Shown here: piece by piece, positions 45,083-50,809 of the stretch
Layout of the letters: each line of letters opens with the position of its first letter
How positions within the stretch are numbered: position 1 is the first letter of the stretch
Source: a virus
DNA length: 64,000 nt
Strand: one strand, 5' to 3'
IMG/VR virus record: IMGVR_UViG_3300015259_000001
Made by a program: the position numbers and the translations under genes
The notes under the pieces: model-generated
Databases searched by the model: none
Seen by the model: only the letters and a program-made list of their open reading frames with translations
Told to the model about the DNA's origin: nothing

Positions 45083-45623
45083 TGGAATTCTTTCCCAAGA
45101 TAATAGAATCTATTACCAAGAATACAGAAGGTAATTCTCCTGTTTTAGCTATAATATCGTATTCAAACGAATAGTTATCTAGTGAGCTTTCGCTGCTATG
45201 CGTATCCGCAGATACCATATCTGATCTTTTCATCCTAATTATTTTACCACCTAGACTTTCAATAGCTTTTACTTCGTTAGGAAATCTGGTATCACTAATA
45301 ACTACATTATTACCTTTAGCTATCTCTTCTTTAATGGTTTCAAACCCTATACGAACCCAAAAATCATCCATAAAGTTTGTTCGAAAAAGATCAGTACCTA
45401 CCACCTGTAGAACTTCTCTAGGGGACATTTCCCATCTAGGATCTACTATTTCTTTCTCAATAGGATCATACATTTGTGCATGTGTAAAACGAAATAGTAG
45501 TTTACCTATTATTTCTTTAAGTGGGTATGCCCAAGATACCTCTACGAATCCGTGCTTCTCAACTAAGTAGGTCGCTACACTGGACTTACCAGAGAGCTTC
45601 TTACCTGACAATGATATAATCAT
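45060..45623 (-). CDS. Deoxynucleoside monophosphate kinase
   Basis: ISLSGKKLSGKS, SPREVLQVVGTD, ISDTRFPNE, HSSE. Confidence 0.9.
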   Translation of the reverse strand: MIISLSGKKLSGKSSVATYLVEKHGFVEVSWAYPLKEIIGKLLFRFTHAQMYDPIEKEIVDPRWEMSPREVLQVVGTDLFRTNFMDDFWVRIGFETIKEEIAKGNNVVISDTRFPNEVKAIESLGGKIIRMKRSDMVSADTHSSESSLDNYSFEYDIIAKTGELPSVFLVIDSIILGKNSSVIPSSV

Positions 45624-45973
45624 TATATCTTACCATCAAGAACATTCAATGCCGTATTAGCATCCTTTCGGTGACCCTCATCACATGCATAATCGAAATT
45701 ACAAACAAAGTTGGAAGCCCATTCTGGAAGAGTCCTTACTGCCTTATAAAGTGTACTAGAGAAGTGGGAGATATCTAATAGTTCTGGGTAGTGCGAATAA
45801 GAACTCCCGTCTACAGCGTACCCTGTAGCATCCGCTAGAGGACAGTTAATAGAATCACACTTATACGTTTTTCCACCGTTCCAAATCGTTTTGACCAGAT
45901 AGGCACGAAACTCAGACTTCTTAATAAATGGTCCCGGTTTTTCTATATTTAACTTTTTCATGGTGTCTCCCAT
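45623..45973 (-). CDS. Hypothetical protein, tandem paralog 2
   Basis: NCPLADATGYAVDGSSYSHY...TLPEWA. Confidence 0.7.
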   Translation of the reverse strand: MGDTMKKLNIEKPGPFIKKSEFRAYLVKTIWNGGKTYKCDSINCPLADATGYAVDGSSYSHYPELLDISHFSSTLYKAVRTLPEWASNFVCNFDYACDEGHRKDANTALNVLDGKI

Positions 45974-46350
45974 TCTCCTGTTTCGTCATTACGTCTAATT
46001 TTATTATCTATAATAAGCAATGCAGTCTTCGCATTCTTTGGAAATACTTTACCACTATAGAAAGCATCTCCAGTTACTGCATCAAATACGGTAACAAACT
46101 TTTGAGCCCAGTCCGGAAGTGTTTTAACTATTCCTTTTAAATAAATACTATGATGATTTTCTAGTAGCTCAGAATAATGAGAATATGAGATTCCATCTGT
46201 AGCGTAACCTGTAGCTATAGCTAATGGACAGTTTTCAAGTGTACATTTATATGTTTCGTTTGTCTTAATAGCCTTCAATAGAAATTGTCTAAACATATAT
46301 TTAGAAATAAACTTACCAACTGGTGAAATATCATTCTTAAGTCTTCTCAC
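45958..46350 (-). CDS. Hypothetical protein, tandem paralog 1
   Basis: NCPLAIATGYATDGISYSHY...TLPDWA. Confidence 0.7.
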   Translation of the reverse strand: MRRLKNDISPVGKFISKYMFRQFLLKAIKTNETYKCTLENCPLAIATGYATDGISYSHYSELLENHHSIYLKGIVKTLPDWAQKFVTVFDAVTGDAFYSGKVFPKNAKTALLIIDNKIRRNDETGEWETP

Positions 46351-47689
46351 GATACTGCTCCGTGTTTAAGTGAAATTTTAAGTCTGGGTACTTATACGAC
46401 AATAACAGTATAGCATATTTTCGCAATTTTTCCGCTTCTTCCTTAGAGTCACACACAGGTAAATAGATTGTAGGACGCCATTTACCTGATTCTTTATGGA
46501 CGCCAGATTTAGTAGAATTTCTTACATTTTGTATAATAGTACATGCTCGCAAATTATTCAAGTTGTTATTTAACTTATCATGATCAATATGATCTACAAC
46601 ATAACCAGATTTAATTGGTCCATTAAATGCTTCCCATACAACTCTAGATACTTGCTTCCAATAGTATCTACCTGAATTAGATAACCCCACCTGATAATAT
46701 CCACTATTAGATAGTTTAAACTTAATAGACTGTCCGGGGATAGTCCTTCCTTTATTGTCTTTTCTAGTTAAAGACCGTATTCGTCCAAAAGAACTAGCTT
46801 CATATTGCTCTTCGAACCCTAATACCGGACCCCACATTTCAACATCATTTAGTCCACTTACTGCCCGTCCTTTTAATAGTAACCAATCCATTTCGGGTCT
46901 TACTTCTAGATTTTTAATCCATGACCCAACACTAGTAGCTGGATATACACCATTATGGACAGAAAAGTCTAAGTAGGCAGATAAGTCTTTCGGAAAACAC
47001 GACCCAGAAAAACCATATTTACCGTCCGTACCGGGGACTAAAAAGTGCGAACGTCCTATTCTCCCATCATTCAAGATTTCAGCTATAACTCGTTTAGAAT
47101 TAACTCCAATAGCTTCGCAGATCTGGTGTAGCTCATTAAAGTAAGCTAACTTATTGCAAAAAAAAACATTAGTCCCATATTTAACTAAAGCAGCTTCATC
47201 CCATGTCATCCATACTATAGGAACAGCAGGAAATCTAGTATTGAATAAATCTTCTAAAATTCTATGGCTAGAAAAGTTATCGGATGTACCAAGAATTATC
47301 CGACTTTGTTGAATAAAATCAAGATCAGCAGTTTTTTCTGTTAGGAACTCCGGCGAATGTATTACTATTAGATTTCTGTGTTTTGCATTCAACTTTCTCG
47401 CGCTTCCGGGAGGTATAGTGCTTTTTATGATAACAATCTTTACATCATCCTCCGGCAAGGTACGTGATAAATCACTTAAAGCGCTATCTAAAATAGATAG
47501 ATCTACTGATCCGTCAGCCTTCATTGGGGTAGGTAAACAAATAAATAGTATATCTTGATTAACTACGTCAGCGTATTTAAACCCCATATCCTTGAATTTG
47601 TCATAGATCTTTACATTTGTATAGGTATGGAATGCTTTGCATACGGCGGTCCCTACGAAACCCGCGCCGATTATACCTACTGAGTACAT
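46337..47689 (-). CDS. ugd: UDP-glucose/GDP-mannose dehydrogenase fused in frame to a NUMOD4-HNH endonuclease; start reassigned to ATG 47689
   Basis: GAGFVG, ICLPTP, IKSTIPPG, SPEFL, GFSGSCFPKD; then YEASSFGRIRS...VVDHIDHDKLNNNLNNL after about 46855. Confidence 0.85.
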   Translation of the reverse strand: MYSVGIIGAGFVGTAVCKAFHTYTNVKIYDKFKDMGFKYADVVNQDILFICLPTPMKADGSVDLSILDSALSDLSRTLPEDDVKIVIIKSTIPPGSARKLNAKHRNLIVIHSPEFLTEKTADLDFIQQSRIILGTSDNFSSHRILEDLFNTRFPAVPIVWMTWDEAALVKYGTNVFFCNKLAYFNELHQICEAIGVNSKRVIAEILNDGRIGRSHFLVPGTDGKYGFSGSCFPKDLSAYLDFSVHNGVYPATSVGSWIKNLEVRPEMDWLLLKGRAVSGLNDVEMWGPVLGFEEQYEASSFGRIRSLTRKDNKGRTIPGQSIKFKLSNSGYYQVGLSNSGRYYWKQVSRVVWEAFNGPIKSGYVVDHIDHDKLNNNLNNLRACTIIQNVRNSTKSGVHKESGKWRPTIYLPVCDSKEEAEKLRKYAILLLSYKYPDLKFHLNTEQYREKT

Positions 47690-48321
47690 ATACTTCTCCA
47701 TTCCAATGCATCCGATATAGTTGGAAACTCCTCAGTAAAGATATTTTTTATCTCTAAGGCTATTTCTCTATGTTCTTTTTGGGTGTGGGGGTCAGTACGA
47801 AGCTCTATATAATGAATCCAAGATCTTAAACTACCTTTCATGTATATCGTAGTTTGAGTAGTTAATGGCAGTACCATTCTTGCTGTCTCTTTGGATACAC
47901 CATTAGCGATTAGCTGGTCATAGGTATATCGGGCAAGAGATACCGTAATAGCAATCATTTTATTTAGAGTATCATCTTTAAGTACAGCCTCGGAAGACTG
48001 TCTATTATTTTTAGCCTGTCTACGAAGCTCTACTGGTTCAAAATTCGTAGGAGAACTATAGCGTTGTGAGAACTCTTGGAATGAAAAGCTTCTATGACGT
48101 AGAATCTGGGCTGCTATAGCTCTACTAGTTTGGATCTCTACGGTCATATCGACCATTTCAAACGGCGACCAATGCTTATTTTTGATCAAGTATTTTAATA
48201 GTTTAGGTGCCGTTTCAGTATTCATCTGATTATCTGGATTGCTTACCCGAGCAATATAAGCCACCAGATCCTCAGTCCGTGAAAGAAAAGATTTAGTGGT
48301 GGATATGATTCTGACGTTCAC
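47677..48321 (-). CDS. thyX: Flavin-dependent thymidylate synthase
   Basis: HWSPFE, RHRSFSFQEFSQRY, ARMVLP, QKEHR. Confidence 0.95.
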   Translation of the reverse strand: MNVRIISTTKSFLSRTEDLVAYIARVSNPDNQMNTETAPKLLKYLIKNKHWSPFEMVDMTVEIQTSRAIAAQILRHRSFSFQEFSQRYSSPTNFEPVELRRQAKNNRQSSEAVLKDDTLNKMIAITVSLARYTYDQLIANGVSKETARMVLPLTTQTTIYMKGSLRSWIHYIELRTDPHTQKEHREIALEIKNIFTEEFPTISDALEWRSICTQ

Positions 48322-48761
48322 TTCTTATCCGCCTCTAAATGTGCTCTAAGAAACCATGCCATCTTCTCATGTTTAGCTGCCCACTCTAGAAGAATATTAG
48401 CGGTTACAGAATCCTGAGTGTTTACAGCAGCAGAAGTTCTCCTAATATCCTTAATTAAATCTTCATGATCCATCACTAAATGATTTATCATATCAGTATA
48501 GTTAAATGGTACAGTAGTATCTTCATATAGCGTACCTGTAGATATAAATTGCTGCATAGACCCGAACGGTTGACCTTTAAGCTGTCTAATTCTCTCAGCT
48601 ATGGTATCGGTTAGAGAGTTCAATTGATTGTACTGATCACCGAATAGTTCATGCAGTGGACCAAAGAATGGTCCTGTTACGTTCCAATGGAACCCACGGG
48701 TCTTTACTAATACTTTGTACTCATCTGCTAATAGTATATTTAGTGCTCTATTTATATCCAT
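48318..48761 (-). CDS. dps: Dps/ferritin-like DNA protection protein
   Basis: FHWNVTGPFFGPLHELF, DTIAERI, HEKMAWFL. Confidence 0.92.
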   Translation of the reverse strand: MDINRALNILLADEYKVLVKTRGFHWNVTGPFFGPLHELFGDQYNQLNSLTDTIAERIRQLKGQPFGSMQQFISTGTLYEDTTVPFNYTDMINHLVMDHEDLIKDIRRTSAAVNTQDSVTANILLEWAAKHEKMAWFLRAHLEADKK

Positions 48762-48874
48762 AATTTATCCTATATTAATATGTTTGAATCTACTTCACAA
48801 TGATAGTTTTATTATGCATAGCTACAAAAATAAATAAAGCTATAGCCACAATAAATGATAGTATAAGAAGAGGT

Positions 48875-49207
48875 CTATCTAACACAAGAATATCCCGCCC
48901 AATTACATAGAATTGATGACCAATTAGGTCTAGGACGTAAAGCATTAATAGCGAGTATTGTTTTTTTCAGATTACGCCAATTAATCTTTGCCCCACAGAA
49001 TGGGCAAAAATTATACTTTGTTGCCATACCAGAACGACCATCGAGAAGCGATCTCATATCTTTATGAGATCTAGTATCCCCTATTAGCTCCTCGATGCAC
49101 CATGACTTTCCGTCACCCTCTAATACAGTATGGTCACAGTCAGAATTGGTAGCGGGGGCGGGACTCGAACCCGCGTTCTGAAGCTTATGAGACTTCCGAC
49201 TTACCAC
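48875..49207 (-). CDS. Possible Zn-ribbon protein whose 5' end overlaps the tRNA
   Basis: CDH...WC...FCPFCGAKINW; GTG start lies inside the tRNA; same frame as RNR. Confidence 0.4.
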   Translation of the reverse strand: MVSRKSHKLQNAGSSPAPATNSDCDHTVLEGDGKSWCIEELIGDTRSHKDMRSLLDGRSGMATKYNFCPFCGAKINWRNLKKTILAINALRPRPNWSSILCNWAGYSCVR

Positions 49208-49221
49208 TTGTCCACCCCGCT
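49147..49221 (-). tRNA. tRNA with CAT anticodon (Met; initiator-like acceptor, non-initiator anticodon stem), CCA encoded
   Basis: AGCGGGG/CCCCGCT acceptor, GAAGT-CTCATAA-GCTTC, GCGGG-TTCGAGT-CCCGC, ACCA. Confidence 0.92.
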
Positions 49222-50809
49222 AGGATCCACACACGCCACCTTTACAGGACTCGTCATTTTCCTCGTATATGACGTCTTTATGTTTTTTCGCTGTTTCATA
49301 GTTTATAGGTACTATAGGCTGGCCCGGTCTTGCTCCATCCGGATACACCGTGATACCTCGTAGCTTCGGAAGATATTGTAGCAAAGTTTCAGCAAATTTC
49401 TTGGCATTGTTGTTACCGGGTTCGCCCCATTCCGGCAAGTTAATAGTAGAAGAGATCGCTTGATCTACGAAACCCTGAACAAAAGCCTGCATTGCTATTC
49501 GCTTCTCAACATCTAAGGATAAGGTCTTCGAGTCTTCAATATCCTCTGGTTTTATTCCTTCCTGAATTAGACGCTCTGCTGTTGGGTCTATAACATAACT
49601 AAACTTCCACTTTCCATCCTTATCAAGAAAGCGTCTCTTATAAGATACACAAAAAATGGGTTCAATCCCTGTAGTAGTCTCGCCAATGATACCTATCGTC
49701 CCTGTAGGAGCTATAGCTCTAACCGCAACAGGACGAATGTCTTTGCTAGCAGTGGCGTACGTATTGGCCTCGGTATCTGAAGCATACATCCATGCTGATA
49801 ACCATTTTTCAAGCTTATTACTGGGGGCGTAAGGATGATTATTCTTTAAGCACCACTCATGCAGTCCCATTAACCCCAATCCTATACGGCGGTTATTAGA
49901 ACGCACCCTAGAGAAAGCAGGATCAGGAGCCCAACTACAATAGGTTCCATTATATAGGAACTGGACACCTAACTCTGTAACCTTAACCAATTCATCTATA
50001 TCTTTAATGTTAGCAAGGTTAACACTACCAAGATTACAAGAATCACTGTCAGTATTGGATACAACCTCACAGCAAGGATTTCTAAGATCCTCTTTCCATT
50101 TAGACCCTACATTAACAGAAAATCCCGGCTCACCTGTCTTGCACATGCTCTTACAAATTCTATAGTAAAGGTCCCAAACATGTTTTTCAGTATTAACTGT
50201 GGCAAAGAAAGCATCATCTAACCCTACTGAAATATTTGTCATATCCAGATCAGCCGGGAAATTGAAGTCTGCCTCTTTTGCTGCTTTAACAGCAGTGGCC
50301 CAATTCTTAACTAATAAGAATTCTTCTATATCGGAATGCATCCAATTTAGACCCGCCCACAGGGCAGAACGTCTTTTGCCTCCAGCCATTACCTGACGGG
50401 CCACTTCATTGACCATTTTCATCAGGGAGATAGGACCACTGGCGACACCTCCAAATCTTTTAATCGGAGTGCCTCGTCCACGGATTAGGCTATACTCAGT
50501 ACCTACCCCGCCGCCAGTGGATAATGCCATTATATGTTTCCCTACTAGGTCTTTCCAACCCTCTCTTGAGTCTTCGGCTCTAAGTAGAAAACAATTATAG
50601 TATTGAGGTATATCTCTACCGGCGGAATAAAGATACCGTCCACCGGGTATGAACTTCCTGTCTCTAATGATCTCAAAAAATGCCTGTTCTTGTTCAGGAT
50701 TTCTAGCAATAGTCTTAGCTACTCTAGCAGCGCATCCTTCCCAATCTTCAGACTCGTTTATCGCATATGTGCGTTTAAATATTGTATTAGCGAATGGACC
50801 AAGCATCAT
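49220..50809 (-). CDS. nrdJ: Ribonucleotide reductase, class II (B12) type inferred
   Basis: PGGR, YNCF, GGGVG, RRSA, NPCCE, CNLGS, APTGT, C-terminal CKGGVC; no ATP cone, no YY dyad and no nrdB in window. Confidence 0.85.
   Translation of the reverse strand: MMLGPFANTIFKRTYAINESEDWEGCAARVAKTIARNPEQEQAFFEIIRDRKFIPGGRYLYSAGRDIPQYYNCFLLRAEDSREGWKDLVGKHIMALSTGGGVGTEYSLIRGRGTPIKRFGGVASGPISLMKMVNEVARQVMAGGKRRSALWAGLNWMHSDIEEFLLVKNWATAVKAAKEADFNFPADLDMTNISVGLDDAFFATVNTEKHVWDLYYRICKSMCKTGEPGFSVNVGSKWKEDLRNPCCEVVSNTDSDSCNLGSVNLANIKDIDELVKVTELGVQFLYNGTYCSWAPDPAFSRVRSNNRRIGLGLMGLHEWCLKNNHPYAPSNKLEKWLSAWMYASDTEANTYATASKDIRPVAVRAIAPTGTIGIIGETTTGIEPIFCVSYKRRFLDKDGKWKFSYVIDPTAERLIQEGIKPEDIEDSKTLSLDVEKRIAMQAFVQGFVDQAISSTINLPEWGEPGNNNAKKFAETLLQYLPKLRGITVYPDGARPGQPIVPINYETAKKHKDVIYEENDESCKGGVCGS

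Follow-up and report, generated by a model that had tools for sequence, protein, structure and literature searches.

A phage tRNA-Met gene as a possible translation start site for the downstream Zn-type gene

Introduction

How is a small protein gene translated when its reading frame emerges from a tRNA gene and no start codon lies between the tRNA and its first conserved cysteine? This question was raised by a locus of an uncultured phage (source record of 121,061 bp with seven tRNA genes), of which a stretch of 64,000 nucleotides, here called the window, was analysed. At this locus the stop codon of a class II RNR gene overlaps the 5' end of a tRNA-Met gene, and the tRNA in turn runs in frame into an ORF with a Zn-type cysteine motif.

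Several known systems are comparable. Translational coupling relies on termination and reinitiation at overlapping or closely spaced stop and start codons. In mitochondrial tRNA punctuation, polyadenylation completes the stop codons. Compact mitochondrial genomes of animals contain tRNA genes that overlap with protein genes (cited in PMC8124441). In Alphaproteobacteria and others, selC (tRNA-Sec) is nested in or overlaps selB, which was described as the first example of a tRNA nested within a bacterial ORF (PMC8124441). The trait is conserved and has been lost in some relatives, and the evidence for it is bioinformatic only (PMC8124441, Mukai 2021); translational coupling was invoked in that case as well (PMC8124441). 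Among published cases it comes closest to the phage locus; it is the one published bacterial nesting case that we found, and its tRNA lies at the C-terminus of the protein gene. A search of the open papers for overlaps between phage tRNAs and ORFs gave no matching report.

Results

Organization of the locus

The features of the locus are as follows (window coordinates).

47677-48321, thyX, next after dps
48318-48761, minus strand, Dps/ferritin-like gene (dps) with its own AGGA site, downstream of the Zn-type ORF
48875-49207, minus strand, 110-codon Zn-type ORF; codons 1-20 are tRNA sequence, followed by a phage domain of the pattern C-x-H ... DGR ... CPxCG ... W
49055-49057, minus strand, first in-frame ATG (M51); its product would be 60 aa without C24 and H26
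49147-49221, minus strand, tRNA-Met(CAU), 75 nt, CCA encoded (ARAGORN and Rfam RF00005)
49205-49207, minus strand, GTG in the D loop (tRNA nt 15-17), putative start codon
49212-49218, minus strand, Shine-Dalgarno (SD)-like GGGGTGG, tRNA nt 4-10, of which nt 4-7 are paired in the acceptor stem
49220-49222, minus strand, RNR stop codon TAG, equal to tRNA positions -1, 1 and 2 (RNR end GGA TCC TAG)
49220-50809, minus strand, class II (B12-dependent) RNR, 528-529 aa (Pfam PF02867, PF00317 and PF21995)
49375-49383, minus strand, candidate extended -10 promoter TGCTACAAT, within the RNR gene and 162 nt 5' of the tRNA

The minus-strand block contained a clpP-like gene, a 227-aa gene, the class II RNR gene, tRNA-Met, the Zn-type ORF, dps, thyX, a UDP-glucose dehydrogenase-HNH fusion and a dNMP kinase gene. 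Genes overlapped in 17 of the 25 pairs of the block, and the median gap was -4. The RNR had the barrel, the B12 insertion domains and the C-terminal cysteine pair of a class II (NrdJ-type) enzyme; its C-terminus, C-x4-C-G-x, was normal for the family, and the same terminus was present in six relatives.

As the earlier note had described, the TAG of the RNR gene (49222-49220) supplied nucleotides 1 and 2 of the tRNA (49221-49147 by both ARAGORN and Rfam). The RNR frame then passed through the whole tRNA-Met without a stop until the TAG at 48875, so that the tRNA led directly into the ORF containing CDH...CPFCGAKINW. The only in-frame ATG, GTG or TTG located 5' of C24-D-H26 was the GTG at 49207, 4 nt past GGGGTGG. 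Three independent assemblies (L005, L009 and L010) were 100% identical at the locus, and an assembly error at the junction was thereby ruled out.

The TGCTACAAT nonamer was identical in the relatives L006 and L008 and was thus kept in the three tRNA-bearing RNR lineages, and it was changed in L001, L011, L100 and L102. The chance of a match of this type within 400 nt is about 10%, and a sigma-70 scan gave matches at the level of shuffled sequences. This candidate promoter could supply the tRNA separately.

Other features of the block were also observed. A 51-codon hydrophobic ORF without a family match (48790-48945, minus strand) overlapped the tail of the Zn-type ORF by 71 nt. The UDP-glucose dehydrogenase was fused to NUMOD4-HNH (46337-47701, minus strand) and stood alone as a protein of 279-285 aa in the relatives L001 and L028, indicating that the NUMOD4-HNH part is an insertion. 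Two tandem small paralogues (45623-45973 and 45958-46350, minus strand) were each 35-39% identical to the 137-aa protein encoded after the tRNA in L006. The Dps/ferritin-like gene was absent from the loci of the relatives fetched and was found in the window lineage only.

Features of the tRNA-Met

The tRNA-Met scored 66.7 bits against Rfam RF00005 (gathering cut-off 29), and the cloverleaf was its minimum-energy fold (-27.2 kcal/mol). When six related tRNA genes were aligned, 95.8% of the cells were paired and both sides had changed in 8 of the 20 pairs. Judged from its structure, the tRNA-Met is predicted to be functional.

In bacterial initiator tRNA-fMet, the middle G30-C40 pair is the crucial one (PMC5389676). 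The phage tRNA resembled this initiator in its CAU anticodon and in G2:C71, C3:G70, A11:U24 and G30-C40, but it differed at two sites (PMC5389676). Instead of the initiator-type mismatch at 1:72, A1-U72 was found in the window and in L006, U.U in the L084-type relatives described below and U-A in L008. Instead of three G-C pairs, the anticodon stem had A-U, G-C and U.G at 29:41, 30:40 and 31:39 in all six aligned tRNAs. A scan for the exact tRNA-Met sequence gave no match.

CAU initiator-like tRNAs with the A-U/G-C/U.G anticodon stem were seen on many phage and CPR contigs (L012-L026 and L029-L083; the CPR titles were Portnoybacteria, Paceibacterota and Saccharibacteria) and in a few other bacteria. 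This distribution is possibly a hint of the host or of evasion of an anticodon nuclease. The genome of the window phage carried a tRNA-Ile with a UAU anticodon, a type uncommon in bacteria (G000 C1 956-1031, minus strand). On an unrelated phage contig with 28 tRNAs, one tRNA (L024:2506-2580, minus strand) had a CUA anticodon (ARAGORN 'Pyl') and is a possible amber suppressor.

The open frame through the tRNA

Among unrelated homologous tRNA-Met genes, the same frame was open in 35 of 43, and some open frame was present in six of the seven tRNAs of the window genome. The baseline of 35 of 43 ruled out the open frame as a sign of design. Joining the tRNA in frame to both neighbours amounts to two 1-in-3 events. 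In the unrelated L047 a tRNA-Met of the same type ran in frame into a 410-codon gene having its own ATG, which shows that chance can produce such in-frame joins. An in-frame NTG at SD spacing was found in three of four clade lineages, which share ancestry, against 6 of the 43 unrelated homologues, and this enrichment is suggestive only. The SD-like run and the D-loop GTG are ordinary for this tRNA type, which weighs against reading them as a start site.

Two similar arrangements were noticed. In L006 (5751-5842, plus strand), whose tRNA carries one inserted nucleotide in its acceptor stem, an ATG at the same in-frame position of the D loop opened a 29-codon ORF, and the TAA of this ORF overlapped the ATG of the following gene (TAATG). 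In the window genome, U8-A9-G10 of tRNA-Thr formed the TAG of a 103-codon ORF located between tRNA-Lys and tRNA-Thr (L103:4517-4894; G000 C1 4816-5193, minus strand), a second case of a stop codon inside a tRNA. A family search with this ORF gave no match.

The Zn-type gene family

The earlier note had asked for homologues of the downstream ORF and where they start. An exhaustive search with the Zn-type ORF gave 28 matches at E<=0.001. In 24 aligned members, D, R, CP and G were invariant, C24, C71 and W77 were near-invariant, and the N-terminal Cys was kept in at least 90%. Free-standing members mostly began just before the first Cys, 1-13 residues ahead of it. At ten distant family loci, a start codon preceded the N-terminal Cys motif in nine, and a tRNA was located at the gene start in none. 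The downstream ORF is accordingly a real small phage gene family, and its codon adaptation in the window (0.72) was typical of the phage genes (0.59-0.81).

The earlier note had also placed two cysteines before any ATG. Of these, C24 makes up the conserved N-terminal pair together with H26; the Cys of the WC motif (C37) was unconserved in the alignment. M51 itself was shared by the window and the L084-type relatives and was absent from L008 and most family members. Residues C24, H26, C68 and C71 are putative Zn ligands on the basis of the motif.

In the structure model, pLDDT was 56 for the tRNA-derived residues 1-20 and 82-90 for residues 21-90. Against the Pfam zinc-ribbon families (PF13240 and related), the score was 14.8 bits at a cut-off of 25, with a match to the CPxCG knuckle alone; searches of Pfam, PDB and known folds gave no significant match (Foldseek E>0.1, VIA Z<=3.5), values that are no proof of a new fold. 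The ESM Atlas returned unnamed clusters only, and a tblastn search of cultured phages with the Zn domain gave no match.

Corresponding loci in related phages

The interval that begins at RNR or the 227-aa gene and ends at thyX was compared among relatives. In L001 and L100, RNR was followed by thyX without a tRNA; L102 had RNR, an HNH gene, a small gene and thyX, and L011 had other genes in the interval. In L006 (RNR 87% identical), RNR was followed after 145 nt by tRNA-Met and then by an unrelated 137-aa gene. In L008 (RNR 81% identical), RNR was followed by three small genes, a tRNA-Met directly adjoining a TAA, and the Zn gene, with 980 nt between RNR and tRNA-Met. The Zn gene of L008 had its own ATG within 38 extra nt after CCA that are absent from the window; the D loop of its tRNA had ACG instead of GTG, and the tRNA frame was closed by a TAG. 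The Zn gene was absent from L001, L006, L011, L100 and L102.

A second group, L084-L090 (the L084-type; seven proteins on seven contigs), had a 227-aa gene 76% identical to that of the window and no RNR at the locus. The upstream gene here was a nucleoside deoxyribosyltransferase (PHROG E 4.5e-14), whose TAG is U8-A9-G10 of the tRNA, 4 nt before the GTG. This gene was in another frame, and an in-frame stop was located 9 nt ahead of the tRNA. The junction of the tRNA with the Zn gene was the same as that of the window to the base (CCA-AYT-CTGA), and the stretch from the tRNA to the first Cys contained no start. The Zn proteins were 52% identical. The in-frame starts of the L084-type were an ATG at tRNA positions -1 to +2 and the D-loop GTG; the window has TAG in place of that ATG. 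For L085, the SD energy was -6.6 kcal/mol for the GTG and -0.5 kcal/mol for the ATG (E. coli anti-SD).

Accordingly, the RNR overlap was unique to the window lineage and was found in none of the six other RNR-bearing relatives, whereas the ATG-less fusion of tRNA and Zn gene is common to two diverged lineages, the only two independent ones found. A scan for the junction pattern over viral contigs gave no match. The tRNA-Met of the window was 69/75 identical to that of L006, a relative without the Zn gene, and 58/75 to that of L084; because of these mosaic identities, the genes may have diverged before the junction arose.

Selection on the Zn-type ORF

Over the 71 codons after the tRNA, comparison of the window with L084 gave pS 0.72, pN 0.32 and pN/pS 0.45 (Fisher p=1.5e-6), and a maximum likelihood (ML) test on the same codons gave p=5e-10. 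Identity by codon position was 0.62, 0.77 and 0.37. For the 29 codons ahead of the first ATG, pS was about 0.67 and pN about 0.36 (p 0.007-0.04 by counting); by ML, omega was 0.26 with p=0.022, and p was 0.054 against L088. Downstream of M51 omega was 0.03, against 0.26 upstream. No protein-level constraint was found on the tRNA-derived codons, where the changes tracked the tRNA structure.

Hence, the divergence path between these two ATG-less Zn genes was mostly under purifying selection, weakly so before M51. Since neither gene has a start after the tRNA, at least one of them would have been translated from a start in the tRNA or at its edge. A test with three taxa did not reject omega=1 for the window branch (p=0.16) and allowed up to about 0.3 neutral substitutions per site at the tip; a branch-specific codon model came out saturated and uninformative. 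The signal may belong to the L084-type lineage, which has the extra ATG.

Discussion

We regard it as somewhat probable that the Zn-type gene, which is without its own start, is translated from the D-loop GUG of the tRNA-Met, with an SD in the acceptor stem and with ribosomes that terminate upstream. The gene's own start would have been lost or was never present in the clade, and GGGGUGG in the 5' strand of the acceptor stem would act as the SD for the GUG. Its predicted pairing energy was -9.8 kcal/mol against -0.1 to -9.2 kcal/mol for 25 same-strand genes, calculated with the anti-SD of E. coli, which may not be that of the host. The aligned spacing to the GTG was 6, and SD sites are widely used by the phage. 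The unpaired probability of tRNA nt 1-7 was 0.00-0.02; the stem is thus fully paired and the SD site needs opening. Buried in the folded tRNA, it would be opened by ribosomes finishing the upstream gene. A terminating ribosome on an overlapping stop codon covers the adjacent SD bases by the size of its footprint. The ribosomes would restart 12 nt past the upstream stop in the window, and 4 nt past it in the L084-type, by translational coupling as in most pairs of the operon.

When the cloverleaf folds first, RNase P would cut, giving the tRNA and a downstream piece that would still make Dps and ThyX. U(-1) is a favoured base for RNase P cleavage, and from the standard behaviour of this enzyme we infer a cut between the U and the AG of the RNR TAG. 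The RNR message would then end in ...UCC U, all sense codons with no stop. A ribosome at a non-stop end is subject to tmRNA tagging or is released intact by Arf-type rescue. Because the tRNA and the start of the ORF overlap, excision of the tRNA and translation exclude each other on one transcript, as the earlier note had proposed; most likely a given transcript can serve for the tRNA or for the Zn-type protein but not for both. The 2-nt overlap with RNR would be a lineage-specific loss of spacer in a hypervariable packed interval, tolerated and not selected as a switch.

Of the three routes offered in the earlier note, namely a GTG start in the tRNA, readthrough of the UAG and a remnant, the first was best supported by the family, by the selection and by the position of C24 and H26 upstream of the ATG. 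That the ORF is an intact-looking remnant is possible for the window lineage alone and on the whole rather unlikely. The start would once have been the ATG at tRNA positions -1 to +2, lost when RNR and an A1-type tRNA were joined, and the ORF would be silent and not yet interrupted by a stop. The TAG that replaces this ATG in the window, the window branch on which neutral evolution was not rejected, and the dispensability of the Zn gene in five relatives agree with this, as does its omission by some gene callers; moreover, a neutral frame of 71 codons stays open with a probability of 0.68, 0.48 and 0.27 at 0.05, 0.1 and 0.2 substitutions per site. Nevertheless, the family-conserved residues are all intact, the frame has suffered no shift and its codon usage is normal, and a ribosome terminating 12 nt upstream would find a strong SD with a GTG at aligned spacing 6. 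A remnant inferred from L008 alone was weakened by the ATG-less L084-type homologues. Initiation at 49057, perhaps on the downstream piece left by processing, with only the C-terminal 60 aa as product, seems very unlikely: the Met is common to the window and the L084-type and omega is far lower behind it, but the product would be without the near-invariant C24 and H26, the segment upstream is still under purifying selection, no canonical SD was found at 49057, and the Met is unconserved in the family. Readthrough of the RNR UAG, giving RNR joined through a tRNA-encoded linker to the Zn domain, hardly deserves credence. It would make use of the one frame common to the three parts; however, two 1-in-3 coincidences suffice for this frame, since the tRNA frame is open by default. 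The L084-type has a different upstream gene in another frame and an in-frame stop before the tRNA, the relatives show no in-frame stop between the same two domains, and RNR ends at the same residue, the family CxxxxC end, in all relatives with TAA, TAG or TGA. Recoding or suppression of TAG was ruled out, as TAG terminates 10 of 36 confident genes and none of the seven tRNAs has a CUA anticodon.

A further proposal, compatible with the start inside the tRNA but claiming more, is a selected switch in which the relative amounts of tRNA-Met, RNR and Zn protein are governed by competition between RNase P and translation, including tmRNA tagging or rescue of the non-stop RNR. Upstream stops lie in or against the 5' end of the tRNA in three lineages with three different upstream genes, and the cut would leave RNR sense codons plus a U, which A-tailing could complete to UAA. 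The RNR part of this proposal, made in the earlier note, did not hold across the relatives, in which the overlap was absent in six of six and the two genes were as far apart as stated above for L006 and L008. Moreover, overlaps are normal in this operon, tRNA-Thr also holds the stop of an upstream ORF, the completion of U by AA is not common to the L084-type, the candidate internal promoter could supply the tRNA and spare the RNR message, and the Zn protein is not known to be linked in function to tRNA-Met. The overlap of RNR and tRNA appears more like the usual close packing of genes than a conserved switch, and we consider the switch improbable. Similarly doubtful is the bolder idea that the tRNA-Met of the clade is a selected, ribosome-gated initiation element, with GGGGUG of the acceptor stem as the SD and an NUG of the D loop as the start, at which terminating ribosomes and RNase P, according to the translation load, would choose between the tRNA with a non-stop message for nucleotide metabolism and the downstream protein.

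A start inside the tRNA would resemble the selC-selB case in that a same-strand tRNA is read as codons and that translation and processing are proposed as alternatives (PMC8124441). There, in contrast, the tRNA codes for a C-terminal extension, and the tRNA and the protein share one pathway (PMC8124441); the phage tRNA would provide an unrelated small protein with its ribosome-binding site, start and N-terminus, and it also carries the stop of the upstream gene. The ORF of the window begins at nt 15 and covers 61 of the 75 nt rather than the whole tRNA, which would be nested in the L084-type if the ATG at -1 were used. As in the nesting of selC in selB, the layout was kept in two lineages, at 52% protein identity, with both the tRNA and the ORF under selection. 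With mitochondrial punctuation the locus shares a tRNA that punctuates a polycistron, with an in-frame terminal U left by the 5' cut; here, however, it belongs to a bacterial phage, and the mitochondrial model has no start inside the tRNA. Completion to UAA by a cut and poly(A) fits the sequence of the window only: the L084-type would end in AA, and L008 keeps a full TAA. The likeness to translational coupling lies in the short distance from stop to GTG and in an occluded SD opened by an upstream ribosome, and the difference is that here the SD would be occluded by a functional tRNA, which is excised from the message.

Should the GTG be used, one working tRNA gene would also supply a protein gene with its ribosome-binding site and N-terminus. 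The element spans 75 nt, and competition of translation with RNase P on it is readily testable with a reporter. The non-stop RNR outcome is real on paper and lineage-specific, and matters mainly as a test of how far a phage tolerates such cuts. ORFs overlapping tRNAs are usually discarded in annotation and such genes would therefore be missed; gene callers skipped the Zn-type ORF on L009 and L010.
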